Assembly (NCBI GenBank): GCA_036172245.1
Contig: JAYWIR010000066.1
Span: forward strand, 372,001-436,000
Source: Raillietiella orientalis
Lineage: Eukaryota
Reading direction: 5' to 3'
Length of the DNA stretch: 64,000 nucleotides
In this document: piece by piece, positions 26,901-52,368 of the stretch
How positions within the stretch are numbered: the stretch's first letter is position 1
How the letters are laid out: the number at the start of each line of letters is the position of its first letter
Position numbers and translations under genes: made by a program
The notes under the pieces: generated by a model
Databases searched by the model: none
Told to the model about the DNA's origin: nothing
Seen by the model: the letters and a program-made list of their open reading frames with translations, nothing else

Positions 26901-27480
26901 GTTTAAATTAACACACGCACTGTGAGGTTTCAGCTCAAAGTGGGGTGCCTTCGATTTATTCATACCTCTTAGCTTGGGAAATTACAGTTGCAACGTAAAC
27001 GCGACTTAACAAAATTCTGTTAAATGTGGGAACTTGGTTTATACGACTGGTGAAAGCTAGTTTCACTAGCCAATGGGTTTTGCTGAATCTCAGTTGAAAC
27101 ATTTTCGCAGTTTTTGCAGATGGATAGGGAAGCTTTTCGTTCAAATTTGCCACTACTGCACACAAGACTCTTCACTACCACCGAAATTCCAAACCAGGAC
27201 CAGAATGGTAAATGTGTAAATGGCAATACGACTTAACAATTACTTCACTAATAATAATCCCAATAAAATATGCACCGGGGATACTGAATAAGTGACTTAT
27301 TTGTGAACCTGGGTCCCTGCCTTTGAGCAGTACAGCAGTCAAGCATAACAAACCTGAAAGAATCAGAATGGATACTGAACAGACACTGACGATACCTTCA
27401 CCAAAATAATAAAGACTGCCGATTCCAATACAGCAGCATAAAATTTCAATGGAATAACAGATACATTCAACTGAAAGTAA

Positions 27481-27486
27481 TTTATT
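27481..27486 (-). terminator. Candidate poly(A) signal of striatin
   Basis: TTTATT on + (AATAAA on -) ~190 nt after the stop. Confidence 0.4.
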
Positions 27487-27678
27487 AATGATGCATTTGG
27501 TTCCACGACATCAAAATAATTTAAAATGAATAGTGGAACCACGGAAACTCCACATGTTAAATGATTACTTTGTCCAAAAGTTGCACTATTCCTCAAAAGA
27601 ATGAAAACATTGAGGAAACCATCCATAATACATTGTCAAAAGTGCCACATAAAGTACAAAGGAGGTATGATTCTAAGA

Positions 27679-30600
27679 TCAAACAAAAACTTTAGTTAAA
27701 CCATCAGCACCTGCACTTGCTAGATAAGACATAGTGGGGTGGAAAGCTACATCAAAGATGGATTCATCAAATTTCTTCCTATGAGCTGTGATTTCTTGTA
27801 CACACATTTTGGTATCAAGGTTCCATAAGCGTATGCTACAATCATGACCTGAATTGTCAATGAAAGATAGCAATCAGCACTGTCTCCACTCTTAAGCAAA
27901 CTTACTTCCTGAAAGCAGGTAAAGTCCATTGGGCTCCATGGCGAGGCTAGTGACAGCATCTAAATGAGCTACCATGGTATGTATACAACAGCCACTATTA
28001 TTGTCATAAAAGCAAATTTGTTTGTTGTTGTACGCAGCAACTGTTAAAGCCAATGTTGGATGACAAAGTACTCGGTTTATAGAATCGCTAACATCAGACT
28101 ACGAGAAAGTATGGATCAGCTGGAACAATAAATCTTATTACCTGAGGATTCTCTAAACAGATGATTGGCTTTCCTGTCTCTAAATCACAAACAAAACAAT
28201 TTGAGTCACGAAACCCTACCACAAACTGTGTTGGTGCAGGATCTGAATGTACTAAATCCAATGACGTAGGGCATGCTTCTAAAAATAGTCACATTTTTGA
28301 ACCAAAAGTCCTGCTTTCTTTTTTTAGGTTTACCAGAATTGAACGTATACGATGATAGCCAGGGTTGAGAACTACCTGGCTTCCATACTCGAATGCTACT
28401 GTCAGCAGAACAAGAAAGCAATTGATGGCTTGTGGGATGGAAGGCAAGGCCCCAAATGCAATCTGTGTGACCAAGCAATGATTCAGTAAGAACAGTGGGA
28501 TTGAAAGTATCATAGGGATCCACTAAAGGACTGGGAACATTCCAACAATGAATCACACCATTCAAATCTCCACTAAAACACTGCTCTCCAGTAGGAGACA
28601 GGGTCAAGCACAAAATAGGTTCTGTGTGACCTCGAAATGTGCAGACTGGCTCTACATCCAAAGAAGCAGATCTAGCATTTTTAGTCAAGGCACTGTTTGC
28701 ATCAAAAAAAAAAAAAAAAGAAAAAAAAAAAGAAAGAAAGAAAAGAAAAACTTACTTTTTTGATGGTAAAGTTTTTTGCAGATTCCACAATTTTAGTGTA
28801 CAGTCCTCAGATGCAGTTAATAAAACGGGTTCTGTAGGGTGAAATGCCAGAGCTCGCACACCATCAAAATGGCTACGTAATGTATATTTAGCATTCCATG
28901 TTTTCCTATTTGCGTCTCTACAAGAGATCTAACAAACGAATTTTTGAGTACTTAATGAGCTTTCCTCACATCGTAACCCATTTCCTCATCATTGCTGACA
29001 GAAAAATGAGCCAGCTCTCCGAGACCCAAGTTATTTCTCAAGACAGTTTCTAAAGCACCTTCTTCAATTCCCACAGACATGGCAGCAGACTTGTCAGTTT
29101 CTGAACAATCTATGGTTACGTTTTTGCTAAATGAATCTGTCATTCACATGCACCATCATGCATTTTATCCAACTTCTACCAAAAAGTTTTACTGAACAAT
29201 CTCACTAAATACCAAACATTTTTCAATAAAAATTTTTGCAAGTAACTAACACAGAGAATTCTATACACGAAAAACTGCCCTTTCAAATCATATGAATGCA
29301 TACTTGAAACTGTGTTACATAAAAAAAGAAAAAAGCTTGTGTTCTTTTATGCGCACTGCACCATCTCATATCAAATTGCTAATTGTTTCTGAATCACAGA
29401 TGCACAATCTATAGTTACAGAAAGTAATGAAACAAAAAACTAACCTCTCACAGGAGACAACTGTGGCAAACTATCTATTCTAGTAGCATGAAGAAAGTCA
29501 AATTCAGAAAGCACCTCTTCAGTTTCAGCATCCATTTCTACTTGATCCCTCACCTAAATACATAGAAAACTTAGATATTATTGAAAACTCATTGGAGCTG
29601 ATGCTAATGCATTGACTGGAGTACATAAAATTACTTTGGCCTTCCTGGAATCCTGAGATCTCATATCAACTTGATCAGTATCTTCATCCACCCCTTCCAA
29701 TTCATCACTTGATGAATCCTCATCTATGTTTCCTACATTGCTATCATCTCCTGAAAGAAATTCGAAATTCGACATTACAGCAACCTCTGCATTTCTTAAT
29801 ATGGCTTCTTTAACGGATGGAGAACGCTAATGAATTAAATTATACACAATAGTTGTAAATATATCTGAACTTGATTCATACCACTTTCTGTCCTAAATGT
29901 ATGCAATTAAAATGTTGAATTGAATCTAATCCATTAACTCCAGAAGCAGAGTGTGATTTATCTTCATTTTCTGAGTTATTTGATATCCCTAACAAAGTTC
30001 GAACTCTCGAAGATCGTACATCAATTATAGTATCTGTGTATCCAATCTCTTGTAAATATCTATTGATACATCATCAAGAACTCCGCAATATCAAATAAAG
30101 AAACTAACTGCCGCAATAGCTGTCTTCCTTGCTTCCATTTTTTGTGTGTTGCAGATGCATTTTCACAATCTGCAGGTACATCTTCAAATGAGGTATTCAC
30201 CTCTGATGGCAAATCAATCCCATACTTCAATTTATGAAATTTTGCTCTAAAATGCATTTGCTTGATATTTTAATATTAAAGTCAAGTTCTCATTCTCACT
30301 TTCCTATCTTATCTGCTTGAAAACCTTAGTAAATCTCAAATGATAAATAAATAATATGCAATAATCATTTATTGAAATGAAAAAAAGCAAAGCAAAACAA
30401 AACAAAAGCAATTTTATTTAGCTTGCACATTTAGAAAGGCAATGAGTCTTCAAGCAGAATGAACTGTTAGCAAAATGTGAATAAAACTGGATAAAAATGA
30501 AACAGTACTAAAGATTGTTTGATACCTTTCTTGCTTCAGTGCATATTCAAGCATTTTAATTCTTCGAACAAGATCATTCTTAAGATTTTCCTGACCTTTT

Positions 30601-32319
30601 CTTTCACCTTGAAGAAAGGATATTTTTGCCTAGAAGACATTCATCTGGAGAAACTTTACAAAATGCATTCACCTTTATATTTTCAATTATATGCAAAATA
30701 TGGTAAAAGGAACATACTTGATTGCATACATGAATGATTATTAGAGAAAAAAGAAAAAAAATAAACAGGAAGGAGTCATTCTGTAACATACAATTTTTGT
30801 TTATAGACTGCTTCATTAACATAATAAGGAATGAATTAAGAATCTTACAGAGAGCTTTATTTTGGTGTTTTGAAACCAAACTCCAATTTACTGTTACTGT
30901 GTGTTCACCAATTTGTATTCTTGGATGCTGTTATATTAGTAGAAGACACACTGTTACCAGGCAAATAATCAATCAACTTAATTCAACTAATTCAATGTTA
31001 CAGTCAACATGCCTCCATAGGATAAATTGATATTAAGTTTGGAAAACAAAATTCCTAGTTCCAAATCAATATATTTGAAAAATAAAGCCGACAGTTTACA
31101 AACATTGAAAAAGGCATCAAAAACCTTGAAAATGAAAAATTACCTCTTCAAAACTTATTTATGAAATGGATTTCCTATGCTTAATAAGTTCAATTTTTTG
31201 ATCACATAAATCAAAGAAAATTAACTCCTAAATCATTTTGCTACCGTATAACAAAAAACGACAGCTTTCTTCTTTCTTATTACAAATTTATTTCAAATCA
31301 ACAATGATTGCAGAAAATTCAGATTTTCTTAACTGTCATGATAGAATGCTGATGATTGAAACGACAAAGAGTTGCATATTATATATTGCAATATAAAAAT
31401 CGAGTTGCATTATGCGCAAGACATGATTATCAAATTAATAAAAAAAATACCTGACATCTACAACTTTTCTAAGAACTTGCATGAGCATATTTCACATTTT
31501 TCTTGTGCTTCTGAAAACTTTACTGTTTTGCAATTCATTTGCTGATTAAAAATTCTCAAAACTTAAGGATTTCAAATTTAAAAGCAGAATCATACAAAGA
31601 ATGAGAGTAAGAATTTAAAAAACGAATTATTATTGGGTGAAAACCCCCCGAAAGTGTACATTAAAATAACAAAACAAATGAAATACTGCATACATTAACA
31701 CAACTACAAAGTTACATGAAACAAAAACTAATCTGAAAACAGAACGCCAGTCCTCATAGAAATTTATACAGCAACACAACTATGACTGCAAAAGTATTCT
31801 GCAATGTTTCTGTAAAAACACATTCACCTCTAAACAGGATTCGATACCAAGGTTCATTAAAAGGTCATAATACCCTTCATAAATATGATATAATTAGGTA
31901 ATTCAGAACGCTAAATGCAATTTATGAAACTATAAAGCATTTTAATACTTCAATTCCAACTGATTGAATATGTGAATCACCATGATAGGTTTACTCATCT
32001 AACATATCAGTTTTGAATTAGTAACCAATGCTGTTGGTAACTAATTCAATATCCGCTGAAGAATCATAATTCTTACTTTGTAGCTTCAATTTGCTTGAAC
32101 AAAACAGATTACCTCTAGTTCCGCCTTTTCCAGTTCCCATTGCACCCTTTCCATTTCAAATCGTGTCCACTCATGCTGAATAAAATGGAGAATCCCTTGG
32201 ATCGAGTATTCAGGTGATTTCTTTTGTTCTTCGGCAGCTTTGTTGTTGTTTCCTGATGGCACGAGATTAGGTGCGGAAACCTGACCATTTGGGGGAAGTG
32301 TATTTGATCCTTCATCCAT
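27679..32319 (-). CDS. STRN: Striatin family protein (Cka/STRN3-like STRIPAK scaffold), ~689 aa. Exons 32319-32113, 30629-30526, 30246-30109, 30059-29882, 29826-29635, 29553-29445, 29100-28970, 28928-28756, 28671-28334, 28278-28142, 28098-27906, 27848-27679
   Basis: Hallmark motifs are YSIQGILHFIQHEWTRFEMER, FLQGERKGQENLKNDLVRRIKMLEYALKQERAKFHKLKYG and WKQGRQLLRQYLQEIGYTDTIIDVRS. WD40 repeats start TWNAKYTLRSHFDGVRALAFHP and end HRKKFDESIFDVAFHP...AGADGLTKVFV*. Exon lengths sum to 2070 nt. Confidence 0.95.
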
Positions 32320-35300
32320 ATTTAATAGCTTCATAGTAGATTACTAACATTTTGATTTATAGTAATAGTGGCTCATGGATAATTACGCTAAATGTACATC
32401 AACTGACAGCACGATTATATTAACTTTTAACTTTTAATTTCTACTAACATAGCACATGATCACTAGCATTCACACACTTCTACTCCCGTTAAAAGCCGAG
32501 ACTTAAATGGCAGCATGTTTGCCAAGTTCCCAAAGTTTTTTCTTAAATAAACAAATTACATTATGGAAGCAAGTAAAACAGTTAGTGTTCCTCAAAAAGG
32601 ATTTCCGCACACAATAAATTTATTGTTAATATACTCAGTAAAAATTATTTTGAATAAGTATTCAATGAGTATTGTCTCTATATGAAGAAAGCAAACAGGA
32701 TATTAAAAATGAACCGGAAGGAGTCTTGAATTTCTTAATTTAGATTACGCATTTCGTAATAGGTGACACCGACCTTTCAGCAATCGGTCACTAAAAATTA
32801 GAGGTAGTTTTGAGGGTCTCTGTCAAAGTTGTGTTCCATTTCTTTGAAACAGAAAAGATATACCTAGGAAATGCGTGTATGTATATTTGTTGAAAACGTA
32901 CGTTTAAATTTAAACATGTAAATAACAAAACGGCAGTCAAAATGTTTCAGTTTTATAGTTATATCTAGAAAATTTCGAGTTTGAATGTTGAAGCAAAAGA
33001 ACGCAAGGGATGATGTTTCTTTACAAGTTTTAGAATAATCGCATTTTTATTCTAGCAGAAAACAAAGGATCCGCTTAAAAATCATGCAATAGACTTTTAG
33101 TTTTTAAAGTTTTATTTTTGTTTTTATAGAATTTCGCTGGTCTTTTAGATGAAACTGCATACTACTTCATACCCTATGTTGCTTAAAGTGTTCAAGATGC
33201 CAAGATTCGAGAATAGGATTTAAACTATCAGCATCATTAACGATACTGCTATAACTGTTTCAAAATTTTAAATCTTGTAGCGCTTTATATTAGCTCTCAA
33301 GTCAGATTAGGGTATTGCGGAAGTTGTATAAAGGAGCATGAGCACACTATTAGAAAATATGAGAACAAGGATGCAGATTCTATTGAATTCTTCCATGGCT
33401 CATAGATTGCCAATTTCAGGTAAATGTATCAATGCTGAATTACGCTTGAGGGATCAATGAGATCAATGCAATAAGCGGTGTGTAACAAAGGTGCTTACCG
33501 TCACTATCTACTTACAGTTGGTGATAATCACACTCTATCAAAGATCCTGATGAAGTATGATTTACAGTTGGTCATTTCTTGTCTGCAAAATTTTCAGATC
33601 TTAATGCAAATATGAATTAGTCATTATTTTTATGAAAATGCTTGTCGTACGGTTCATTAAGAAAAAAGCTATTATAAGTTTGCAAAAGATCGAATTGTTT
33701 TGTTTCCAAAATTAAGCAAAAATAATAGAAATGATTGCAAAGCTTCTTTCACTTGTCTCCATATCACTTTGAAAAAAGGAACTAATTCAGTCGATTATAC
33801 CGCACACAAGATGCCATCTTGGTTGGCATGTTTTGAAAGACGGAACTAACAAATTTCAAATGCTTAGGATGAAAACTTTTTGTAGTGAACCGTAAGTTGC
33901 CGATGGCAAAGTCTAGTTGCTGTCATCATTTCATTCTTCTAGAAACCATTTATGCACGCAAATTTTTGTTTTCCTCTCACTCTTGTTTGCCTCGATTTAA
34001 TTCCACACGCAGTTGAATATACGAACATCAAAATGCACAAATTTAATAGCAAATGCAGCATAAAGCAGTCCAAACCGGGATAGAAAGCAAATCCCTAATA
34101 GCGACATCGGTCTATTTGTATTTTCAATTTTGCTCGAGATGCCCTCAACCTTACTTAACAGCTTCCGTGGAGATAAATAGGCAAATCATGTTTTGTGTAT
34201 TGGTTCTTAAATACCAAATGTCATGGTCATCGCAGTACACAAGCTTGAGAGAGCAGTGTGCATCTACGATTGTTAGATGATTCTAAATGAAGCAAGATTA
34301 TAAACCGTAAGACCAATAAGTGTATCCTAATCATTGATCCGCATTCGGGAAATATATGATATGATTAGGCAAGGATGTACATATATGTACAAGAAATAAA
34401 CAGAGTGCTAAATCTCCAAGTGAAAACCCGTGAGAGTGTGTCGCAACACTTTTCCGTTCAGGCACCAACGCATGATCAGAATATATACTTTCCAATATTG
34501 AGGTTTAATACACATATCTTCATGATCGGTTGTCTCCCTACCTGATTTTATTTGCACATTTTGCAAATTCAGTTTGGTTTCGTCCGATTTTTCTTTTGGA
34601 ATTTAATCCTATGCGCATCCGCAACAGAACTCCATAACTTATACATATCTCATTCTTAAAAGATTCTCCTGGAAACAGTTATTAACTCTTGGGAATGAGT
34701 ATCCACAGATGTAGAATTCTTAGCCTTTCATATCTTTCTTCACGTTTATATGAATACGTAAAGATGAAGAAATCGTACTGATCAGAAACGATTTCTCGAT
34801 GGCATTGGTGATGCTACATCTCTCGAAGCAGCTTGAGCCTTATCCACGTTAGATTCCTTTCAAGAACTAAGTCGAGGAAAGGATAGTTCGTTGGAAAAAT
34901 GAACGCGGACGGATTCTAAATTTCCCAATCAGATGGTCGATTTTTGTATGTCTCTCTGTGCTGACAAACAGGCGGACAAAACAATCCGAATTACAGGAAC
35001 TTTCCTCTCTCCGCATAGCATGAAAGCCAATTGTGGGTATCCAGTTGGCATTGCAAAGGAATTTGATTCGAATAATTTCACAGGACAGTAGTAATTGATG
35101 ATCATTGTCATCTTACTTTGTAATCACTTTAGTCTATGCCACTTAAAATCAGCTCTCTCTTCGTTGAGGTAATGTTACGTTCTGTGCCTATTCAGGATGC
35201 TCAGAGTTATAATGGAAATTATTTGGACAGCTGCTTATTTTTGATCGGATCGCATTTCCAAAATGTCCTGTTTCTATGTAATGTGTGTGTTTTGGAGTTT

Positions 35301-38300
35301 CCAAACGTAAGCGTTCTGAGCTTTTTATTACTTGACATGCCTTCATCATTACATGTTGCTTTTCTGTTTTCATCTTCATTGTTTACTCTCATTTTCCCAT
35401 TCTGTTCCCTATCTATATTTTCATTTCGTCCTTGTTCTCTTCCGAATCCAGTTAGTGATATCCGGAATTGCACAGCGCAGAAAGATCAAAAAGTCTGGAG
35501 GGACTTCAGTACCACAATCAAGCTTCAGGTTCTTCAATTTAAGTACCCTAAAACTGAAGGGTTTTTCATAATGTCCTAAAGCTAAAACGATAATCATTCT
35601 GAAGAATAGAACATCTCAAGACCTCTCCAAAATGAGAAAAATCTCTTGAATGCCTTGAAGTAAGGAGAACCTGGTATCTCACACCTGGCATGGATGCTTT
35701 TTATTACTTCTAAGCTAAAGATTTTCCCTGAAGTTCATGGGCGCTCTTGAAAGACTGAATGGGAAATATTTTCCATATCGTCTTAGTGAGAGCTGTCAAA
35801 ACAAGAAATATCTATTGAGGATGGTTATGGGTTTGCAATTTAGTACAATTTCTAGTAGGTTGGATCGATAGCGGCTTCTACTACACAAGGGGCCTTTATT
35901 TCAGCGGTCCCTCGTTGTTTCGCAAAAGGTAAAATGAAATTGCGAACAGGTCAAAAAGGTTGCAGTGCTAACCAGGAATAGAAGGGAATGCTTGCTATTG
36001 CAAACCTATGCTTTTTGTGTGTGTGTTTTTCAAATCGAAAGAGTCAATTAACCGGTCAGGCATTGACGTTGGGCGCTTGGAAGGTCATCACGAAAGTCGC
36101 CTACATGCGATAAACGGAAGTGTTTCCTTTTTAACCTTCCCTCAAAGTTGCAGGCGAAGAAGACGCGCAGCGGCACCTCGGGAGGGGTTGGCTCCAGAGC
36201 ACCCTCCTGGGCCAGAATGTGGTCCTTGGAAGCCCCACACGCATGCGCAGAAAACGGCCGATGCTGGATTTTCGTAGGAAAGGATGTGTCAGACCTACCG
36301 CACCTCTGTCCGCACAGCTACGGATCAAGACAAGCACGGCTTGACTTGATTTTCTCATTCGAAACATTAGGAAAATTCTATTCACCCTATGATCTCAGAC
36401 AGAAGAAACGGACTCTTCTCTCTGGAAAACAAAAAGGAAAGAAACGAACTTGCAGGTGAAAATGAATACCAAAAGTCACGAATGTTGGAGTCACAATGAG
36501 GAAAAGGCAATTTCGGATTGAATTCTTCATGTATACTTCAAACCCGTATTGAGTGTACTTTTCCGATCTTCCAACGGGGATTTTGCATTTGAAGAAGATT
36601 CAGAGGATCCAGTGAGTTCCCAAGGTAAAGGAAACGACGCGCAAAATTCCGAGACGAACTGAAGACAGCGTGAGTTAGGTTGGTAAAGAATTCCAAGAGA
36701 TGGAACCGTCAAGCATACATAATTAAATAATGATAGGTAAATACCAATCACCGTCAAGTAGCATGTACGATTCATCTATCAAGTGGGAAGTGCGGACAGA
36801 AAGTCGGGAAACAGAGAGTAAACTGGCCACAGAAATAACAGCCGTAGCCATGGAGACTTTCAACACTGGCAGAGTGATGTCTGCCGAGATGTGAAGAGGA
36901 AGAAAGCGCCGGGTACCGAATGCTGAAAGTTCCGAATCATCGATTTCCTTCCAGGAAGAGATGCAGCAGACCATAAGCCCCCCACGAGGGGATTTCGCAA
37001 GGTTTCCCGTTCGTGGAATCTGTGCGGATTTGCGGATACGTGTGTACTTCAGTGTGGTTCTAAATCAGTGTTTATGAGCCGTTTCGAAGCATTTCTGTCT
37101 TCCACAGTGATTTGCAAACCTGACCGAAGGAAGAAGCTCCGTTCCCCTTCTTTCCGGAAAGGTTTTTTCCTTTCTTTTTTTCGAGTTTTTATGAAAGCAA
37201 TCTTTGCGAATGGTCTTTTCGAATTTTAAGAGTTGATTGACGCAGAACTCCAATAAGTATTCCATGAGTAGATCTGGGGAGGGGTAGAAATTCTTAGAAT
37301 TGCTTCGTTTTGACCAATACAGTCGGTTGATAACATTCCGTGTACCGCATGGTCCATGAGGACGAAAAATGCGCGCAACGAATAACTCGAAAACTGTGTT
37401 CCTGTCGACCTCGTCTCGCAGCTTTCGGTTCCCGGTCCTTTCTTTGGTGACCCTTCCTGTAAAAGCGATTCGCTCCCTGAAAAACAAACAGATATCCAAC
37501 CACGTGATTTGTAGTCCTTCGCGTGTGGCCCACTGAAACTCTTTCCCGAGTGCACAAAAAATGAAAGACGAGCTCGGTTTTTGTCGGTCTTCGTGAGAGA
37601 TGACCAAGGACGAACTCAGCTAATGGTGCTTGCAAGTGTGGTGCAAGTTTTAATGGTCACATGGAATGAATGGAACCTCAGACAACATTATTGGTCACGA
37701 CGAGACCCTACACTTATAGACGACTCGCTCCTGTCGCAGGAATGGCAAAGAGACGCCGTACGGGGAATATCGGCTACTGTTCCAATTCCATTCACTACAT
37801 TTTAGGACATCACCATGAAAAGATCTGTACAGAGTTGACGGAAGTTCCCAACCGAGCTCTCACTTGATGCAAGTCGCAGGAAGCATCTGCTAACGTTGGA
37901 CATCTGAATAATAACCGAGCAGTACTACAAACGATCTCGTTTCGAAGCAAAGAGTATTCGACACGCTACTCGACGCGTCCTCCCACCGGCACTCTCCATG
38001 ACAATTTGTGAATTGGGAGACAACTGACAAAAAAGAGCTGTAGGATGTCTATTCTTCTGGCATGACATCAATGGCAGCCAACGTGGTATCGAACACTTGC
38101 AGCCACTTTGAGCTTCTGAGCTCAAAGTGGCTGCAACTTTGAGCTGCAACTTCTCAATGCTTCTGAGCGTCTCCTTCCAGACTCACTATTTTATGCTTTT
38201 CACTGATCCTTTCAGGATACTCTATGGCTCTCTATTCCTATTTGCAGCAGTGCAAACATTACATAGAAGTGATCTGATCTCAGACAGCACCGCGTCCTCT

Positions 38301-39911
38301 GCTAGGATACTCGGCGCTAACATTCGTAACAAATTTCAGTGGGAGCCAAAAAAAAAGTGCCCCTCCAATATGCTCTTAAGAATTTCCCGGAACGTCACAA
38401 TGCTGAGAAGTGGCCAGCGAAAGCTTCGATTCCTAAATAAGCTTAGATAAGATTACAAATTCTCCTGACACTGGAAATCTGCTGCCCCATCTCCCAATGA
38501 ATCGTACCTAAGCAGAAACTCTGGTTGCATTTCCGTGGGCAGACACTGTGGAAACAAACGCAACCTTCCTTCAACGTGCCAGATAACTTTGCGTTGCAGA
38601 AAACATGAAATCTTAGCTAACCTTTCCCCAAAACTGAGAACATGGGAGTTCACCGAATCGCAGCCAACATGCACGCACCTATCTCGACGTGATTTACATT
38701 TCCTATGTCGAAATAGCTGGATTTGCCCTCGAGCACCAAACACTCCTTAGCCTTTCAAAAATGACCACGAATGTGAACTCCGACTTACATGTCCTTGGAG
38801 ATGTGTGCTTTTTTCCCCTTCTTTCTGTGTGAATGAACTGAAATCATCTTGGATGTCCCGTTTTAAAACATCTCTTTCCGGAAGAGATATCTGACATTTC
38901 GTTTGCTGTATTGATTTAGGAAACTGAGACCAAAACACTAGTAATACTTTCTAATTTGGGACTTCTTTAGACTCAACCATTTTGTTCAGTTGTGTTCTCA
39001 TCGAAGATTCATCTAGGGGGAGGCAGCGGTGTATGATTCCAAATGTAAGTGGATAACACAACCGGAACAACAGAGCATGATGTGGAGCACTGATGTCAGA
39101 AATCATAACTGAAACAGAGGATCACTCATAGGAGAGTGAAACAACCCAGTGAATTCTGGGAAATACTGAGAGGGTGAACAAACTGGGCTTAAGACCAGCC
39201 TATGTTGTACAAGACGTACAGAAACGGAAAACAAACGACGGAACAGTGGAAAACAAAAAGAAGCCCATCCAGCATGAAGAAGCGCATCCAAAGCACTAGA
39301 AATTTGTTTGAAAAACTCATTTCAAGCAAACCGTGTGCTTTTGCGCGTTTCAAAACAGAAAAAAAAAGAGAAACGAAGGTGAGGGAAGAGAGACAAAAAG
39401 GCGTATCTAAAGAGAGCCCAGTTGATGCGGTCAAAGTTTCGAACAGGAAGAGTGTTGACTCTGCTTTGGCCGGTAAATTTTTTCTTCATTTTGTGGAAGG
39501 ACCATGCATGCGAGTGACCATTAGGAAATAAAAATGAAATAAGGAGAAAAAATGAAACAATCGCTGCAAGCCGAAAAAAGTAGTTGGAAATAAGAGTATT
39601 GCTCCAACTACCCTGCCTATGTAGTTTGGCAAAAGATCGTAATATTCCGGTGCCTCAGTCTGCCGAAAAAGAAAATCACGCATGGAAAACGAATATACAC
39701 ATATCTGTTGAGATTCATAAGCATAATTAAAGCTTTTGTTCTGGAACAACTGCTTTGAAAAATTGATGAAGCACGAGCTGATCATAATAAGCTGGTCATG
39801 AAAGATTTGGGAAATTCCTCCACTGAATTACTTTTATATAGGAAGGTACACTTATACTTATACTTTTAGAAGTCCGTATCTAACGGGTACACTCATACAT
39901 ACGTGTACCCG

Positions 39912-39918
<7 letters not shown>

Positions 39919-39956
<38 letters not shown>
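39919..39956. repeat. (TA)n microsatellite
   Basis: About 19 TA units. Confidence 0.9.
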
Positions 39957-39958
<2 letters not shown>

Positions 39959-42952
39959 ACATCACGATATACCTGACTTCTAAACAGTCTTATGTACTGT
40001 TTCTATGAAAACTCTATATGAGGCAGGCTTAGACTTTTTGCTCTTGTGTTCCTATAAGAAAAAAAAAGTATCAAATAAAACTAAGTCTGGAGAAGTTTTC
40101 TCGCTAACCAGATACAAAATTGTTGATCAAATTTCTATGGGTTGACCACATTTTGAGTCTATGACTATTTCAATAAATCATAAGTTCATGCTACCTTTCA
40201 CATGAATAAAATACTGATTCCACATTGTTAAACATAAAACTGCTTACAAGAAATGGCTAATACCTACCAAGTATCATCACTTGAAGGAGTCCATCTTTAG
40301 TGTTGCCTCCCTGCAATCCGTTTGTAGCTTAGTTTAGTCATTTTAATATTAGAAGTAGATGCTCACACATGAAAACCCTTTTTAAATTAATTTTGAATCA
40401 TTCCAGCTGGATCGCCCTGAATCTGTTATGCCCAACACGTATTTGCTCCTCTTTAATGAGACTATGCCTGTTGACTATCTAATACTATATGCAATGATTG
40501 CACTGTCCTTGAAACTGTTATATGATATGTAATTTCCAAACAACGTCTGTCGCAGATATGTGAATACTAGTATTTCATTTTAGAAAACACGCTTGCAAGC
40601 ATTGTGCTTACATCAGAATCATTCCTAAAATGTAAAGTTTCTTTGAAAATAGAACTTATAATTTGAATGCAATTAGTCTCCATAGAAGAAATGGTTGTTT
40701 CAGCGTATCTGGAAAACAAGGGTTTCGAGTGATGAATATGTGATGATTGTTTTCCCAAATATGACTCACTGGAAACTTTCCTATTATCAGTTCTGATTGT
40801 TCACTAAAAAAAAAAGGGGAAGGCCAAAATACAGATGGAATGATAGTTTCAAATTTTGTTCCCTTAAGCAGCAATATGATAGGATTATTTCCAGGTCAAT
40901 AGAAGCCAATTACTAATAACACGGATCGGATCTGGTAATGCAGAAAATGAAACAACAAAGAACAGTAGCTATTTTAATGTATCTAGCAGGAAATTCATTT
41001 GAAATGAGACATCCAGCTATTTTAATCTTGATTCATGATTCAGGAGACAGACAAACAGTGTTCTTCTGAAGGTGGAAATTTAATTAGCAGAATTTCCATG
41101 GAAGGGGGCGGGGGGGAAGGACTCGATCTGAAATCGATAAAGTGTCTCCGATACATGAAAACCGTGCCAAAATAATAATAAGCAGACGTTCCCCGTTGGG
41201 TTATATGGCAGCTGCAATGAATTGAAATTTAACCTTGGAATATAAAGTAAATTGCAATATTGTAATCTGAATTAATGTGGGAGTACATGTGTGTGTGTAC
41301 ATATTTCTCACGGGGCGAATAAGGACAGCGGGGAAGAGAATTTCCCGATGATGATTACAAAAGGAAATATGTCCACAACACATGGAGGGAAAAATAATGA
41401 TTTTGAAAACCAGGTTGTTGGTCCATAAAGGGTGTTGAATTAAATTCCTTGCTTTCAATTCATCTATTCATTTCCGAAACTGTCTACATCGTTACGAACG
41501 TTTCCCATTTTACAAGGCATGAACCAATTCCAATGCATACACTCCACGCACATACAGTGTTTTTCCAGCGTTCCTGCTCTGCATGCATTGTGTGTAAGAA
41601 AAAACTGGATACTTAAAAGCAAATAACGAAAGTACTACGAAGTATAACTACAGTTTTACCTAACCAGTTACACACTGAAACCGAGTATCAGCAAGATTCA
41701 CATCACCGATGCACGTGGTGTGATATCCAAGTAAAACATGTAATCACTGCAGTCTTCCTAAGGCAACTGTTTAATAGCAAAATCAAGTCCAGAGCTCAAA
41801 TTCCGACACTTTGATCGAACCGGAGTGCATGTTTTCATTTGTGCCATCTTTTAGAGAGGATAGTCCATTTTGGAAGGGGAAAACAAATCCTGTGGTGCCT
41901 AGGGAACAATACTTTCCCACAGTTTGTACAAAATATAACTTTGTTACTTAATAAAAACAATTTATACATTAGTGTGCGATCGTTTATTTGTAGCTCATTC
42001 ATGTTCATTCCGATTTCCACAGAAACGATCAAGAGTTGCAATACTTTCTTCAAGGCACCAACGGGCGAGTTGCAACATAATTAACCATGTTAGCAATTAA
42101 TAAAAGATATCTTTCCCAAAGATGTTTTTTTTTGAATTATGCAAAACGGTACCGGTTGGCCATCTCCGAAAAGTCACCGGTAAACCCATACTTCATTCAA
42201 CTGGTACGAGGGTATAATGGTACGATACTACAAATTTGAAACGAAAGAGTGTTCAAAATCACGATGCCACTGCATCTTCCAGATTATACGAATGCATTAA
42301 CATACCTCACAATTTACAAATGACAGTTGTGTTTATTTGCAAGTCAAGGGTATTAGACATACAAGGCCGAAATCCTTTCAAATGAATTTATAATGTGATC
42401 CCTTTACTGGAGCAGAAAGATAAATCTCTGCTTAACTTAACGTCTGAGTCAGGGGAAAAATTTTGCACCCATCTGGACTGCATAATGACTTTCTTATTCA
42501 TACCAATCTCAACACAGACACACATATGTCTTAGGATACATGTACTGTATGAGCTTGATGTACCCTAGAATGACATTCAAATTACAAACCAAAGTCAAAT
42601 TAAATTCAATTTTCTCCATATTCGTTCATGGCTGCAAATAAGAAAAAAATGATCCACAGGAGTAACATTCCAACTTTCATTCATGAATTATATCAATATT
42701 GTTGTTAGAAAACTAAATACTATATGCTACTTAATTACATATAACTCTTGAAGAAAACGATGCCTCTGAAGTCAAAATGGAAAAACAGATTGCTTTGTTA
42801 AAAGTTTGTATTAAAATCAAACAATTAAATCGTAATAGAAATCTGCACAAATATATTGCTTATTTAAAGGTAAAACACTTATGATCTTTTCAGATAGATT
42901 ATTCTCTCACATTCTACTTATAAATGCACTATTTCCGGAAACCCACGTATTT

Positions 42953-45900
42953 TCAGGAACTAGTCTGTGATTGTTCACTGGGACCCCAAATCCGCACAGT
43001 TCCATCATCAGAAGCACTTGCTAACATTTGGGGAAACTTAGGATTCCATGTAACACAATTAACCGTTCTTGTATGTCCACTAAGCACACTAATAGGAAGC
43101 TCTCGACGAATATGCCATATGTATACTTTGTTATCTGAAAGGATATCATAAGCAAAAGCAACACAATGAATACTTTTACCTTCACTTCCACTGGCAACAA
43201 AAATTTCATTAAGACCTCCGAAACAAGAGTGTATGGTATAAAAGCCTTGTGTTACTCCTTGAAATTTTCGCACCAAGCATCTATCTTGGAGATCCCATAA
43301 ATGTATACCCTGAGTTGCTACATTTAACAATGCAAGTCTTCCCGAATTATTTACAGTAAAAGACATAATTGCATGATCCTCTTGTAAACTGGAATGAATA
43401 ACACGTAATTCCGTAATGAGTACACCATCATACCTACATATTAAAATCAGAAAGTTCTTCAAAATTGTACCCACGAATTCTATGCAGTGTATCAGCTGCG
43501 AGCACTGTTTTACCATCATTTTTATACCATAAACATTGAACTCTGACTCCCTCCCAAGAATCTAATATGTTTCCATCAAGATCCTAAAGAACATATGGGA
43601 GAAACATATTCAAGAGTTGTAGGAAATGATAATTATGAAAAAAACAAGCAGAAAACAAAACAAAACATGCATAAAGATTTTTGCATCCTTACACACTGAT
43701 AAAACTGTCCTCTTGTACCACCGGTTACAAATTTTTTGCTATCTTTATGCCATGAGCATGATGTCAAACTATCATCAGATGACTGAGAAACTTTAACTTT
43801 GAGTTCTCCTTTTTCAACATCCCATAACCATAAATCTGAGCAATCATCCGGGCCACAAGCAGCCAACATCTTACTATCTGGACTCCAAGCTAAATATGCT
43901 ACACCAAATGAATGGCCTTCTAATACTTTATTGTGCTGAACTTTTTGGGTCTCCTATGAATGAGTACATTCTGAATATACGAAAAGAATGTTTGGAACCA
44001 ACCAGATCAACATTCCATATAATGGCGGAATTGTCTTTAGACCCTGTGGCCAGCATAGTTCCATCTGGAGAAAACTTGCAAAACCAAACTTCATCACAGT
44101 GATTATTAATAATTTGTATAGTTTCACAGGGAAAATTCTCTCTAAAAAATAATTGCGTAATTAAAAACAAAAATTTCAGACGAAAATATATTTGCATTAT
44201 AAATAAATTCACAACAGTGTATTATAATGGCCTATAGCCTTCTAAGAAAAGTTTTCGTGTCGAAGTAATGATCCAAAACCATAACTATTAGGATCGTTCA
44301 ACTGGAGATTATACTGTACGAGCCCATTAACATACGGATATTATATATACGGATATGACTGATAAAACAAACAAAACTCAAAAGGCAATACAACATTTCA
44401 CGCATTTTTAATGATTATTCAGTTAGAGGCCAAATGGGATTGATGGCTAGGATAATTTCCATTTCCAAGATCTCTAAACTTAGGTAAGCAAGCATTAAGA
44501 AAATGAATGTTGCATGTCCTCGCACATTCTTACAGCTTTTACCAAGTTAAATCACTACATTAACCTGTACAAAAAAAAAGAAGAAAAAAACAAAAATTGC
44601 AGGGAATTCCTCTACTCTGATTTACACTACTGAATACTCAAATGCATTTTAAATAAATACGTTTTTCCACTTATTAACAGCCATTAAGCAAATGTCATTT
44701 TAACACGCATCTACTCCCCAAGACAAATCATGATTAGCAAGACGAGAAAACAAAAATACTTTCACTACTGATTAAAGGAATGCTTTGTTTTCTTTGAATT
44801 GTTATTCCAAACCGGAGTTTCTATAAAACAAAAAGACTACGATTTCAGTGGACAAATTTTACTGCTCATACAATTATCTATATAATACTGATACTATTGA
44901 ACTAAGTTTTCTCCTCTTTTGTCAATATTATTCTTGAAATTCTTGATTCATTATCTTTGCATTATGTACTCTATGCTCCTGTGTAACGAGAACTGTTTAC
45001 CAAAAGCACACACAATCTCTTTAAGTTTTAAAAAGCTTAATGGTGCCAAGACTTTCAACAATGTAATTTTCTACACGTATCATTCTTCTTACTTCCAAAT
45101 ATATTACCTTCTAAACCAAATTTATATTTAAAACTTATCTAGTATACTTTAAATAAATATGTGGAAAACCAGAAAAGCAAATTAACTCAGATGATGGAGA
45201 GCAAATGGCTGTTGATTATAAAATTTCACACAATCAAGAAATGAACATGCACTCTTAAAAGTATGAAAAAAAGAAGCATCACAAAGGCAAACACTCAACT
45301 CTACTTGCGATCAGAAATCGTTCATTTACCAAAACTTCCAAAAATAATTAATGACTTTTTTGTCAGCAAATATTGTAGCTTCACAACTGGACACACACTG
45401 ATTATTCTCAATAATACCATATACATGCATGACATTATCAACAGTATTTCTAATTAAATAGAAAACTCGAAAAAATACCTGCTGCAAATATGATCAGTTA
45501 GCAAGGAGCTATTATGAGCTTGAATTTCAGTATTGTGAAAAGGACATCGGTCAAATTGAGATTCAATAGCCTGAATAAGCAGCGTTTTCAATCTGAAATA
45601 CGCATATTAAAATTTTAGCGATTAAACCAATGTCTAATCTTAAACTAATCCATATATACTATGTAGCTATAAGACAACTTGATAATTGAAACATGGACAT
45701 TAAATGGGTTAAGAATTTGATATCAGTGCATGATAAAACAGGCAATGCAATAAAATTGATACATCAATCAACAATGCCATAATTAAGTTACATGGAACAG
45801 TAGGAAAGCAATGTTGAATTCCATAAATTGAAAACACTTTATAGTTCAAAACAGTGAAACACAAAATGTTGAATAAAGTCACCTTCTAGGTGGAAGCATA

Positions 45901-48900
45901 ACTGTGGGTGGTAAAAACTCTTGCAAATGATCCATTAATTTTGATCTACTTGAATCACCTTTTCCATCCCATAAGGCATCTTTTCGAAGATCTTCTGAAC
46001 TTGCACACATGATCAAGCTAAAAAAAAACACACATACGTAAGTGTTTCAAAAATATAACATAGTAATAATGTTGTATGTACCTTGAAAGCTTGTGGATTT
46101 TTTTCGTATTATGCTGTAAAGGTGTCAATTCATTTCGTAAACAAAATAAAGCATCGATCAGCTTTCCATCATCTAAGAATTCAAGAAATTTTTGTTCCAA
46201 AATAACAAATTTCATTTCCTGTAATAGAAACATTAACATGAAGTTTCGATAGAAATTATGTGCAAAGTTTTACAAATGAATGAAACAAATTATATAAGAA
46301 AATGCATGTTCTGATTTAACAGGTGTACATACTTGGAAGAATAAAAAAAAAAACGATAAATACGGGTAACAACATACCGATTTATGCTTGTATGGAATTA
46401 ATAAGTGTTATCAAAAATACAAACACAAGCTTCTTGGATCAACGTCAAAAAATATCAAGTTACGAAATTCTCAAATAAAACACTCTGATATTTAAAAACA
46501 CACATGTTCTTTTAAAGCATACTTCCATAATAAACACAAAGCAATTTTCAATAGAAATCACAATCTTAAATTGATTTAAAAAATGATTTCTAGTTCTATT
46601 TCAAGCTTATATGTATGTTATATATGTATTTTTTTTATTAAGAATTACATCACATACAGCAAATTAATGCAACAATTAATACAAAGTTTTTGCCATTACT
46701 TTTAAGTTCTGTGGATTTTCAAGCAATGATTTTACTTCTACGAGGTCCAATTCTGCCTAAAATAAATCAACAATTACTCACATGCACTAACATGTAGATT
46801 GAAAAGTCAACAATAATAAAGTGAATTGCGATTCTGTGAAATTATAATTAACTTTGAAATCTTATGTAATCAACTTTAAAAAATCAAACTGAATCCAACT
46901 CTGTAAGTCCAATAAAACAGTTCAAGAATTATATAAACCTGTATTTAATTTAGCATTTTCACTCAACATGATATATGAGAAACCTTGAAGTTATTAATTT
47001 CAAAATATCTCAAAAACTAATTTTGAAACAAATTATTGAATTAAAATAATGAAAACAGACATTTGTATACCTACTCCTAAATGAATTCCAAATGCATGCT
47101 TGCAAGTTCCATATTTATGTCATACAAGACTTGAAGTTAATATAAAGCTAATATTTGAACTCAAACATCACAAAGAAATGACTTATTTGGAAGTAAAAAA
47201 AAAAATTATACAAGCTAAACGCTTACAGACCGGAAAGCAAAAAAGAGCCGAAAAAGGCAAGAAATATCGATCAAAGCACATATAAAAAACTAAATGTTAA
47301 CATAACAAAAATGAAATTTTTAAGCTGTAGCAGTTTCAAAGCTTAATGTTAATTAAAATTTTAAGGCTGCTTTCAAACCCATTAAGGCAAACATTAACAA
47401 TGATAAAAGCACACATGGTTCAATCATGAATAATACAAACAAAAACATGAATCATGGAATTTTGTTTCACTAATGCAAAAACCTTTTTCCAATCACCCTC
47501 CATGACATGCTCTCTGAATTTCATTGCTGCTGGATGATCAAGCTTACATCCGGATTCGTAGATGAGTTGTTCAACTGACTGACTAACAAGAGAAAGACTG
47601 CATTTAAAAAAATAAAAATGTGCTTTACATGTAAATTATGAATACTTCCACCTTGGTGTCTAAAGGAATAAATATTCATAACTCCAAAATATTAAGCAAC
47701 AGTCACATTGAATAACTGCAACTGCAAAAATTTAAATATATGGCACATAGGTAAATTTCTCAAAAAATGCATTGCAAATTATATTAAAAATTTAGCATGT
47801 TTTGAAAGACAATTTTTAAAATAATAGGGCTCACACGAGAAAACTCTGAATGAGACACTGAATTTACATGAAGGAACTCACAAGAATCCACAATTTAACA
47901 GAAAATAAGGAGTAAAAAGAATCAAGTCAGCTGCCCCAATAAAGATTTCATTATTAAAAATGAATGGCACAAAACTGAAAGATGCTAGCAAATATCAATT
48001 CCAAATAAATTCATAATTCAACAAGAACATGTCAAAAACAAGCAATACTGAACTGTATTAATTACAGTTCAAGCAAAAAACATTTTAAAGATTAACAATT
48101 AAAGAGTAAATTTTTTTCAAATTTATACAAGAACCAGCCCTTAAAACCCAATTCATCGTATGCACGATGCTACATTATAATCTTAGCCCAAAAATTGAGA
48201 AGCAATTGTGCTTATAAAAAGCAGAAAACTAATTCATAAGAAATACGTGGGAAATTAACAAATAAACTGTGCTATCTGCATAAATCAGTGTGTAACATGT
48301 GAAAAAATTAGTGATAAATAATCCACTAGCAGAGGGAAAAAGTATCTACCAATTTTTAGAAATGAATTCGTAAGTATAATTTTTTTTCCATAATAAATCA
48401 AAAGGATTTAATCCCCACACAAATTACTATGATAAATGACAGAAATTTCATACCAATCATGCAAGCATACAACACAAGTCAACTGAAATGTCATTCACAA
48501 ATCCAACATGAAGCAATATTCCCATTCAATACACACATTCATAACAATCAGAGAATGCAGATTTCCAATAAAAGTATCTAGGAATAACAAGGAATAGTCT
48601 GTTGGAAGAAAAAGAAACTTTAAAAAAACTAAAAAAAAATTCAAAAAACCACATATTATCTCCGGAGGCAATGCATCAAAACAATCATGCATTACTATGT
48701 CAGATACTTTTACTTTCATTGCTTAATTTAAATTGCTGCTAAATTACCTAGAAGCGATGATAAAAACTTACTTGAAGCCAAGACTTCGTAAATATTGTCC
48801 TATTAATCTCACAATATCTTCATCGAGTTTAGATATAGTTTTACCAGATGGTTGAATATATTGCTGCTTATCTGAACTGGATGTAACTTTCACAGCAATG

Positions 48901-50158
48901 TCATTTTCATCAGTAATAGATCCATTTTGTTGAAGACATCCATTAGTAGTGTGCTGCATTGTACATGAACGAATCTTTTGCTTTTTAAGTGGTGGAGGTG
49001 AAACACCTCCCTCTTCTGAATCACCACAGGAGTCCAGGCTTGCAAAAACAGTCACGTACCTAAGAGTAAAGTTATTAAACATCTACAACCCAGTACAATT
49101 CAATCTCTTGTAATAAATTTGTTTCCAACTTAATGTTTTTGGGAGATTTGTAACACTTTCCTTAATAGAAAATAATTGATAGAGAAAAGTACATGAAATA
49201 ATCAATACAGAAATTAAAAGTACAAGCATGAACTTTCAATGAAAGAAACCCATTTAAAGTACAAGTATGTTTGAAAAGCATCTTACTGATTATTGATTCC
49301 AAAACTAAACAATGCAAAAACATCCTAATATATAACAAATATGCTAGAAATACATATCCCTAATTAGAAACTTTAGCAAAATGCATCTTTAAAAATGCAT
49401 CTTTGACTTACTCCACAACTTAATAAGTAGGGATATGTTAATATCCTTCTTGAAGTTCTCATATATTACTGCTAGCCTTTTCAATTGAGTCACTTCCACA
49501 TTAATGTTCTCCAAATATATTTAATCTTCATAAAGAGAAAATCCAACTTACGATACATCTGAATACTTCTAAAAATATAAATCATATGAAGACGGTCCAA
49601 AGTGATTAAATTAGGTTAAAATACACCATATGATCATGCAGTGCATTGTATGTCTTTCGTGGTTTTCAAAACATACTATTTTTCGAATTTAAGTAATTTA
49701 GCCTTTTAATAATACTTTGATAGGAACAAAACACACTTAAAGATGATAGCTCCACAATAAGTACTTTATTAAAAGTATGACGCACAAAACGGATTCCGGC
49801 TGACTATGAACAATCATACAGTTAATAAAAATAGATATAACGTTCACATGCTTCTGGAGACACAGTATTATAAATAAAAAAAAAAGCATAGTATTTCTTG
49901 CCCCTTAATTTATCCTCATATTCTTCTGAATGTTTGTAATAGTGGTCATTGCGACATATTGCGTTTCAACATAGCTGCTTCCAAATCATTACTTTTAGTC
50001 AAACGAATGCACTCAGAAAGTTCACAAATTCGGAAAGACAAGTGAATGTACTAGTAGTTATCAACAATTAACTATAACAACTTACTGCTAACTTTACTTT
50101 CAGATTTAATGTTGGATAGTTGAGTACTGCTCACTTACTCGCGTCCTTTGTTTTCCAT
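42953..50158 (-). CDS. WDR26: WDR26 (GID7, CTLH/GID E3 complex; LisH-CTLH-WD40). Exons [50158-50139 putative], 49059-48772, 47582-47483, 46756-46700, 46218-46082, 46017-45883, 45592-45479, 44141-44003, 43953-43693, 43583-43438, 43388-43180, 43134-42953. 595 aa from AUG 50158, or 555 aa from AUG 48959
   Basis: Motifs [16 protein letters not shown] (LisH), [80 protein letters not shown] and [13 protein letters not shown]...[14 protein letters not shown]. All junctions are GT-AG and in frame. The first exon is less certain. Confidence 0.93.
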
Positions 50159-52368
50159 AATCAGCTGATTAAACATCACGAATCCCTCTTTCCAAGCAAA
50201 ATTTTTCATTTCAATAGAGCTCAGAAAGTCCCTCAGAAATTCGACGTAAAAATAAAACTAATGCTTTCGATAATTAAGGATAATTTATTTATTCAGATTA
50301 AATTCTTAAACAGAAATTAAATGATCATAACTTGATTCGATGAAATTAAATTCGAACAAACAAATAATAAACAAATACCTTCAAGAAATAAGACAAGTGT
50401 ACAATAAAATACTATGATAATTAGAGCTGTTAGGTGTAACTCGTTGAAAGAATCATGGGAAGAAACCATGATAAATAAGCTTAAAGGACGTGTTTTTTCA
50501 TAATTACAAACACAGCTATTTATAGTACATTAATGCTTTGACGTAGTCCTGTAACTCTATTCTCCTGTGCTTTGATTGACATTGATAAGTCTTCCTAAGA
50601 ACTTGATTTCTTAGAAATATTTTGGAGTGAATTAATCCTTAAGCCCTTCTTTTTGCCATAAACTTTCCAATGTATACTGATAAATAGGTGTAATATCCAT
50701 AAGATGTAATCAATCTCGTAAGAACATGTTTTACTCCTTAGAATGTATAAAGTCATCGAACTCCTAAATTCTTTTGTAAGCTTATTTCGAATGCTCTGAC
50801 TTTTAAATATGAAGGATTTATCGTTTACGTATCACCTTGCCAACCTCGTGATTAAGCTATGCTTAAATTTTCTTCTAAGTAAAGTTGTCATTGCAGAATA
50901 GGGTGCACTCGAGTTTTCATTGAGGGATTTACAGCAGCTGGAAGAATTAATGTTTAGTTCAGTTCAGACACCGCAGGTATCACCGTCGCAGATTCTTTTA
51001 CTGTCCCTTCTTTTGGACAACAGACAAAATGTTTTGTCAAACGTATTTTCTAGAAAACTTGGTTTTCGAATCCATGAGGAAATGGGAATAGTTGAGGTGA
51101 TAAACATATGGTTCTGAAAATTTATTGAACGCAAAAAGTACAATAAAATGAATGAATAACAAATTCAGCAAGCCTTATGACTGCATGAACGGTTCATTCA
51201 AACAAAAATTGCGTAGCTTGAAGTATTCATTCTGATCTTAAAGTGGCATATTGATTTTGCACAGAGCATCATACTCATGCTGGCAGCAGTTTTACAACTG
51301 CAAGCAACGTAAAAAGTAGCGAACGATGCACTTTCCTAGAAACCTCATTCAGGAATCGGATTGTGGAATTTTTCATTAAAAGATGACGGCTGATTTACGA
51401 ATGTTTGGGGAAGATTAAAATTCTCCGTTTCACTTGTGCAAAAATGAAAACATTCACATTCCCATCGTGTTCTTCGGCCTATGCACATATCTCCATTCCA
51501 CTACTATAATTCAATACAAATAACGAGCCCTTGCAACACGCAATTGGGTGTCCTGTTTTCCACAGTGCACACTCGCCGTACTGAGACGATGATTGCCAAG
51601 GTACACGGTCTAGAAAAATGATTTTATCCAATCGTTTGCTTTTCGTGCCTTCTTTAGAAATACCCCTCACCATATCTACGACCTTAAAATTTATGATAGG
51701 TTTTGCAGACACGAGGAAAATGACCCTTGTTTCAAGATGGTCCTATCTTACAGATAACTACAAATCACAATTCCGTTTGCGAGTACAACTTTCCGATTCT
51801 TTAAATTGACTATTGGTTGATGATGACTTCATGCTCATCTTGACTCTTGGAACCAGTGTACGTAACGGATTCAGTGTATTTTCGCACTGTGGATTCGGCA
51901 TTGCTAATATATTCCACTTTCCAGTTTTCATATGATCATAACAAATCTTGCTGAAAATTCAGTTGGAGAATTCGAACAAAGGGAGACAGTATTGTTAATG
52001 CAGCAAATACCACAAACACCCAGTTTGGGGAAACTGGATCAGGCAAAAAATACAAACTTGCTGCACAAGAGACTTAAAGTGTTTGTGAATGCAGCTCCCA
52101 GAAAGCCCTTTTTTCTTTAAGTTTCATTCAAGAGTACAAATTTACTTTGCAATGACATGCTAACACACACTACCTGCAAGGTGAGCACACCCAAAATGGG
52201 ACAAACAGCTAATATGAAGAACTACTCAAAATTTACAATATCAAGAGCATCAGTTTCTTTAAATGCTTTTTGCATATGAAAAATTGAATGCAAACCCCAA
52301 ACATACAAAGAAATGAACTTGAAAAACAACAAAAACAATAGGCAACCATAATGTGTATATTTCAGCAG

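Follow-up and report, generated by a model that had tools for sequence, protein, structure and literature searches.

The WDR26 locus and the sequence around its canonical and proposed start codons

We analysed a 64,000-nucleotide stretch of the Raillietiella orientalis genome (GenBank assembly GCA_036172245.1, contig JAYWIR010000066.1, positions 372,001 to 436,000 of the forward strand; hereinafter the window, in whose coordinates all positions are given). Its minus strand carries an orthologue of WDR26 (the CTLH E3 ligase subunit; WDR26/Gid7), and our subject is the 5′ end of the coding sequence of this gene, where an in-frame leader, which conservation indicates to be a coding extension probably initiated at a CUG codon, precedes the canonical AUG. 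Several searches identify the gene: a WD40 exon as query gave 1462 matches (E <= 1e-10), of which those bearing a name are WDR26, and two exon open reading frames (ORFs) matched the Pfam profile PF00400 (WD40) with 37.7 and 41.8 bits (cut-off 27). The LisH_TPL profile gave a partial match to the first-exon piece alone (19.7 bits, under its cut-off of 30.7). In tblastn comparisons the LisH and CTLH exons are 52-66% identical to those of orthologues, and a tblastn gene model built from four orthologues comprises about ten WDR26 exons, from 49059 down to 42956. Identity to WDR26 amounts to 55-64% over 553-678 aligned residues, alike for termite, mayfly, horseshoe crab, oyster and nemertean; so even a range does not assign the gene to any one phylum, and the arthropod affiliation in the initial annotation is an assumption. 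The features of the locus are collected in Table 1.

We catalogued every ATG and every GTAAGT on the minus strand of 48700-50400. An initial annotation of this DNA had listed ATGs, a CTG, two splice donors, an acceptor and an open frame in this region, and on a minus-strand reading all of them lie where it had placed them; it had passed over the ATGs at 49082, 48966, 50209 and 50176, the GTAAGT sites at 49551 and 49411, and an in-frame GTG in weak context at 49055. The frame upstream of the ATG at 48959 is open as far as a TAG at 49085-49083, which yields a stop-to-stop ORF of 104 aa (49082..48771). A hand estimate from the local GC content of about 30% gives a chance of about 3% for 41 open codons; the open frame by itself is weak evidence for coding, and it is homology that decides the matter.

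Further upstream, the ATG at 50158 (A at -3, G at +4) reads MENKGRE and is followed by two GTAAGT donors, at 50138 and 50085, which are 53 nt apart and of which only 50138 joins 49059 in frame. Joining 50139 to 49059 creates a split GA/G codon for Glu, followed by YVTVF..., whereas with the donor at 50085 the frame of this ATG stops at TAA 50137-50135. GTAAGT occurs 12 times on the minus strand of the whole window, four of these being between 49060 and 51500. The stretch from 49.06 to 50.0 kb is incompatible, as a leader, with a CUG start because it holds 26 ATGs; the remaining possible options for the 5′ end of the mRNA are an intron ending at 49060, a transcription start less than about 155 nt from the CUG, and an upstream exon bearing an AUG. 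For 155 nt upstream, the CUG is preceded by a single ATG, that at 49082 (the next is at 49194); this in-frame ATG is relevant solely to an mRNA that is unspliced in this region and begins upstream of 49082. A repeat scan of 48900-50800 found no duplicated first exon, only short AT-rich matches.

The same region has a 15-nt inverted repeat (87% complementary) formed by 49060-49074, in the acceptor tract, and 50089-50103, upstream of donor 50085. It may join these splice sites or block access to the acceptor. Since the surrounding AT-rich 1.9 kb contain 13 pairs of this kind, a chance origin is plausible.

Table 1. Features at the 5′ end of the WDR26 gene and the extent of its exons (A1, alignment of the window with 31 database matches, described in the text)
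Feature	Position	Strand	Basis
Canonical AUG (MQHTTNGC...), start of the short isoform; -3 A, +4 C	48957..48959	-	sequence; annotated orthologues begin here
CUG, proposed near-cognate start of the long WDR26 isoform	49035..49037	-	sequence and conservation in relatives
Initiation context agcCTGg (-3 A, +4 G)	49034..49040	-	sequence; gcaagcCTGg common to insect-like and other loci
Predicted 26-codon N-terminal extension, first residue L/M	48960..49037	-	extension-only profile, alignment A1
Acidic Ser/Asp/Glu tract ending in Gly-Gly (SCGDSEEGG)	49005..49031	-	A1 columns 18-26
SPPPLKKQK, basic motif resembling a nuclear localisation signal (NLS); consensus SPPPRKKxR	48975..49001	-	A1, 32 sequences
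Out-of-frame AUG between both starts, 7-codon ORF overlapping the canonical ATG, weak context	48964..48966	-	
In-frame TAG, then directly in-frame ATG 49082-49080 (T at -3, T at +4)	49080..49085	-	
Candidate upstream exon, in-frame ATGs 50209, 50176, 50158	50139..50260	-	frame open 50257 to 50138
First coding exon (extension, low-complexity N-terminus, LisH start)	48772..49059	-	sequence, tblastn model, partial LisH_TPL match
Bounds of the first coding exon	acceptor AG 49061-49060; donor GTAAGT 48771-48766	-	5′ bound: consensus match only
Remaining WDR26 exons (CTLH/CRA, WD40 propeller)	42956..48771	-	tblastn, WD40 Pfam matches, WDR26-named best matches

Conservation of the leader and its CUG codon from invertebrates to vertebrates

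A phmmer search with the 104-aa ORF as query against a database of 1.84 billion representatives recovered 33 proteins at E <= 1e-3 (three of them at <= 1e-10), mostly short fragments corresponding to the exon-1 ORF; a word-seeded search with the first-exon ORF returned 62 candidates, none of which scored. Thirty-one of the 33 phmmer matches reach upstream of the canonical Met, aligning with the window from residue 14-16, and these together with the window constitute alignment A1 (32 sequences), from which we omitted P0138 and P0145, both of which begin at the canonical Met. Upstream of that Met, A1 reveals a module composed of Leu-Ala-Ser-Ser, an acidic Ser tract, Gly-Gly and PPxKKxR. P30, P31 and K33 are invariant, and L16 (Leu in 30/32), S18, G25, K34 and the canonical M42 are at least 90% conserved; in the basic core the first K is found in 32/32 sequences, the second K in 29/32 and the final R/K in 30/32, and columns 18-26 follow the pattern S-S-(S/G)-(D/E)-S-(E/D)-(D/E)-G-G. 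Since position 13 is variable (no residue in at least 7 of the 32 sequences) and the residues from 14-16 on are kept, conservation begins abruptly two residues before the CTG-encoded Leu. A profile of the extension only (residues 14-41), made without the window and scored against all 1850 ORFs of the window, matched this ORF with 39.8 bits (E 2.8e-11), the second-best ORF having an E of 0.8. The initial annotation had named among its checks the presence of the SPPP-basic motif upstream of the AUG in other arthropods, and the motif is kept there and far beyond. Judged by this homology, the 26-codon in-frame leader is real coding sequence, predicted to encode an ancient, conserved N-terminal extension.

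At the nucleotide level, we scanned metagenome contigs with a second alignment, A2 (headed by P0130 and continued by the window and 27 more sequences, with P0133, P0148 and P0149 likewise excluded), which gave 95 confirmed matches and 80 loci with DNA. In 70 of the 80 loci PPxK(K/R) precedes the LisH motif, and most of the remaining ten matched at the LisH end only; 65 of the 70 (the other five are taken up below) collapse to 48 distinct sequences. Leu is found in 45 of these 48, and all 45 encode it by CTG, preceded by A at -3 and followed by G at +4. As a control within the same ORFs, CTG accounts for 13 of the 73 remaining Leu codons (18%) and AGY for 37 of the 128 remaining Ser codons; the Ser that precedes the CTG is AGY without exception. 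Among 25 representatives picked by eye from the 45, with one large clade cut to four, the Leu codon is CTG throughout (25/25), the adjoining Ala, Ser, Pro and Lys codons varying synonymously; the -1 codon takes nine forms for four amino acids, all starting with A; and the canonical AUG has a purine at -3 in every one (25/25). Single linkage resolves the loci into 24, 18 or 8 lineages at 80, 70 or 60% identity, and even with 8 independent lineages the probability that all should have CTG is about 1e-6.

Spliced transcripts with ORFs of >500 aa from the Leu (n=7) have an in-frame stop upstream of the CTG and no AUG between the two, the stop lying 1 codon (L065), 7 (L070), 8 (L004 and L006), 17 (L009), 19 (L050) or 40 codons (L054) away; P0199, for its part, begins MASSESEKEGG, with an AUG exactly at the CUG position. 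In 44 of the 45 loci no out-of-frame ATG occurs between the CTG and the next in-frame ATG, and conservation of the leader across phyla extends only over about the last six bases upstream of the CUG. Thus, among the three starts that had been proposed for this gene, CUG 49037 is the one strongly supported by nucleotide-level conservation. Two further features of the region were considered. A splice acceptor as the source of the fixed A at -3 was ruled out, as the -2 base varies among G, C and T. A perfect 7-bp hairpin (GGAGGTG ttt CACCTCC; 48994-49010, minus strand) lies 27 nt after the CUG, in the Gly-Gly and Pro-Pro codons, and reaches -12.5 kcal/mol as against -5.0 +/- 2.1 in shuffled sequences, with GGTGG/CCACC stems in many relatives; we dropped it as an initiation enhancer, given that Gly and Pro codons are complementary by nature and that one clade is without the stem.

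The module is included in the models of mayfly, termite (partial), Timema, spotted gar and catfish, and in Daphnia it stands behind an upstream AUG both in transcript-like assemblies (698-708 aa; one on 69 contigs) and in the D. galeata model (713 aa). The RefSeq models of Daphnia WDR26 (625-637 aa) have the canonical Met as their first residue and omit an AUG-started extension of 70-82 residues (Daphnia cluster P0154-P0167). Annotated WDR26 proteins of spider, horseshoe crab, octopus and millipede likewise begin at Met; fragments resembling those of spider and octopus (by eye) have the module upstream of it. P0152, which is 92% identical (58/63) to the annotated N-terminus of an octocoral WDR26, reads VTLASS...PPPRKKAR upstream, and the module therefore reaches Cnidaria at the protein level. 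Insect-like sequences (L002, L007-L017, L009, L049; P0184-P0186) display conservation upstream of the CUG as well (KFHHGD, and SNKIS.E further up), and the mayfly model has an AUG 25 codons before the Leu; insects may make a still longer form, initiated at a different start. The transcript-like L060 and L061 (638-aa ORFs) have PPPPAKRARL upstream of Met and no recognisable Leu-Ala-Ser start or acidic Ser tract, so that the 5′ part of the module is not universal. L055 has an in-frame stop between module and canonical Met, and the ORFs of L075 and L077 depart from WDR26 sequence shortly after the module; some lineages may have an intron between extension and Met, or a decayed copy.

Non-AUG initiation has been known in vertebrate WDR26 since 2011; what is new here is an invertebrate member and the depth of the CUG conservation. 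According to the available text of Ivanov et al. 2011 (PMC3105428), an extension initiated at ACG/CUG is conserved between human and fish; products of 72.1 and 81.3 kDa are predicted, and a vendor's blot shows two bands. For flies the same text describes an AUU-initiated extension and suggests that it arose independently. The human leader in its Supplementary Dataset 1 (entry #22) reads ACT CTG GCC TCC and then the same module; the vertebrate CUG is therefore homologous to that at 49037. This bears out the proposal in the initial annotation that the leader is homologous to the vertebrate non-AUG extension; the human ACG-initiated sequence given there agrees with the dataset, but its 'ASL' is not homologous to the 'ASL' of the window. 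The window and vertebrate extensions belong to the same gene and have in common the module (Ser-rich acidic tract, GG, SPPPRKKxR), the CTG in A..CTGGCCTC context and the dual start with a downstream AUG, whereas in human WDR26 a further candidate start, ACG, lies 8 codons upstream and the AUG is separated by a much longer spacer. The range found here goes beyond the human-to-fish span of the 2011 report: many invertebrate lineages have the CUG, and an octocoral-like sequence has the peptide. According to the available text of Fedorova et al. 2022, WDR26 is one of seven genes for which GENCODE v35 still annotated neither a near-cognate proteoform nor an intact extension; that of Zhu et al. 2018 gives one peptide of the human extension (4 peptide-spectrum matches), which fell after EGFR inhibition, the canonical protein being constant. 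Our literature search, which may miss some papers, found none describing a CUG start in invertebrate WDR26.

As in the near-cognate extensions with leaky scanning discussed in the available text of PMC3105428, in which the long form carries a localisation signal, conservation here starts, at its 5′ end, around a near-cognate codon in good context, relatives have an AUG-free interval, the downstream AUG is conserved, and the extension has a motif resembling a localisation signal. The present case differs from that class in its unusual depth (insect-like loci to human for the CUG, as far as Cnidaria for the peptide) and in that the window has an out-of-frame AUG within the interval.

Probable dual CUG/AUG initiation and alternative readings

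Given the context of the CUG, the conservation of the Met and the lack of AUGs in the interval in relatives, we consider it likely that the WDR26 mRNA has two in-frame starts, CUG 49037 for a long isoform and AUG 48959 for a short one. Part of the scanning ribosomes would start at the near-cognate CUG in its optimal context and produce the long isoform, with its 26-residue extension made up of the acidic Ser-rich tract, Gly-Gly and SPPPLKKQK; the other ribosomes would scan on to the AUG and produce the short isoform, as in genome annotations. At the window locus, CUG use would then be accompanied by leaky scanning that sets the ratio of the isoforms. Of the overall interpretation in the initial annotation, the ancient coding extension stands, with the CUG as its most likely start, while the switch by splicing and upstream AUG and the control of localisation are kept as hypotheses.

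Several points weigh against dual CUG/AUG initiation. What speaks for CUG use in invertebrates is conservation of sequence, and the in-frame AUG 49082 or the AUGs of a spliced upstream exon could start the extension instead; an upstream in-frame AUG is in fact present in some relatives (the Daphnia transcripts, the mayfly model and P0007) and in the L032 transcript. Five of the 70 module loci (L060, L061, L063, L074 and L078) are without the Leu by pattern, and in another three (L057, L059 and L072) a non-Leu codon was picked, the acidic tract being unrecognisable and the pick untrustworthy. The 45 loci with CTG are not independent, about half of them falling in one clade. In the window itself, the mean identity of the module to the family is 0.44, below average, and residue +1 is Asp as against Ala in relatives. 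The out-of-frame AUG 48966 has a counterpart in only 1 of the 45 relatives; in its weak context it would somewhat lower the yield of the short form, with leaky scanning reduced, not abolished. Finally, it is the shape of the basic motif that suggests a phospho-regulated NLS.

With respect to function, K-(K/R)-x-(K/R) is the classical monopartite NLS consensus, and the KKQK of the window fits such a basic core, relatives having K-K-x-R. In phosphorylation-regulated NLS modules, e.g., that of SV40 large T antigen, kinase sites stand beside the basic cluster. The likeness of the extension to the SV40 type is one of layout only (an acidic Ser cluster and a Ser-Pro site, then a Pro-preceded basic cluster). 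Residues of the acidic tract may be kinase sites and, going by motif shape, the choice of start may tune WDR26 between nucleus and cytoplasm; the literature search found no paper on an NLS in the WDR26 extension.

A rather unlikely alternative retains the same CUG start and takes PPxKKxR as not, or not only, an NLS: it would serve as a cis pseudo-degron in the propeller pocket, making the long isoform an auto-inhibited receptor. In the available text of Gottemukkala et al. 2024 (PMC7616709), NMNAT1 is bound by the WDR26 propeller through a basic internal degron, which is at the same time the NLS of NMNAT1, is not replaceable by a conventional NLS and is mimicked by the YPEL5 N-terminus. The extension motif resembles both the degron and the YPEL5 N-terminus as a short, Pro-preceded basic run. 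In the NMNAT1 construct of that work, however, an aromatic residue comes after the basic run, and the extension motif has no such residue; moreover, AUG-started WDR26 is fully active there without the extension. The two known motifs also reside on other proteins, whereas binding between extension and propeller is hypothetical.

As to where the long isoform begins, the initial annotation had envisaged a switch in which it would start at AUG 50158 on an mRNA spliced 50139>49059, the use of donor 50085 instead turning this AUG into a 7-codon upstream ORF and leaving initiation to the CUG and the canonical AUG. This we judge improbable. The sequence permits it, in that the ATG has a strong context, the two GTAAGT donors and the AG acceptor are present and splicing 50139>49059 preserves the frame, but all of these are consensus matches only, and the further GTAAGT sites at 49551 and 49411 and the in-frame ATGs at 50209 and 50176 complicate the exon. 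AUG-started extensions do occur in some relatives, and a tract just upstream of donor 50085 shows 13/15-nt complementarity with the acceptor tract; yet beyond about -6 there is no upstream conservation across phyla, and an upstream AUG as strong as 50158 would pre-empt both conserved starts.

We give very little credence to an unspliced mRNA begun just upstream of 49082, on which AUG 49082 would start the longest form and the CUG and AUG 48959 would be reached by leaky scanning. That AUG is in frame and alone in the 155 nt before the CUG, and in relatives such as P0007 and P0201 an AUG precedes the Leu by 3-12 codons; the context of AUG 49082 is nevertheless poor, the residues between it and the CUG are unconserved (position 13 and upstream), and the tract before 49060 resembles a polypyrimidine-AG acceptor. 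That the extension is an untranslated relic in the window species, its leader no longer used for initiation, is most improbable, for although the module is more diverged than most here and an out-of-frame AUG has arisen between the starts, the reading frame is unbroken, neither the CTG context nor any invariant residue (PP, K) has been lost, and the extension-only profile gives a highly significant match.

Implications and neighbouring features

If WDR26 is made from both the CUG and the AUG, its long isoform is missing from annotation, in that the named Daphnia, spider, horseshoe crab, octopus and millipede models start at the AUG, and the structural and biochemical work in the available text of PMC7616709 used an AUG-started construct. 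A fixed CUG and context before a peptide with invariant core residues argues for a function of the long form that is as yet unstudied. For translation biology the gene would be a very deep example of dual initiation, and the 2011 suggestion of independently arisen invertebrate extensions would be revised; in the corrected gene model of the window, the coding sequence can begin at 49037. More speculatively, the CUG might be among the oldest conserved non-AUG starts of animals and the extension a phospho-controlled switch of the CTLH complex, acting through nuclear import or as a pseudo-degron on the propeller. We regard this combination as doubtful; if true, start-codon choice would set the location or activity of the CTLH ligase.

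Downstream of WDR26 and on the same strand (minus), the window has a striatin-family gene at 27680-32340, which we recognised from a Striatin Pfam match on its first ORF (E 6e-12) and from WD40-like exon ORFs. An Rfam scan of 24000-41500 gave no match. At 24000-27000 and 36000-39000, two islands of 43-48% GC stand within the locus of about 30% GC; both contain long ORFs that overlap in several frames, and they may be transposable-element insertions.

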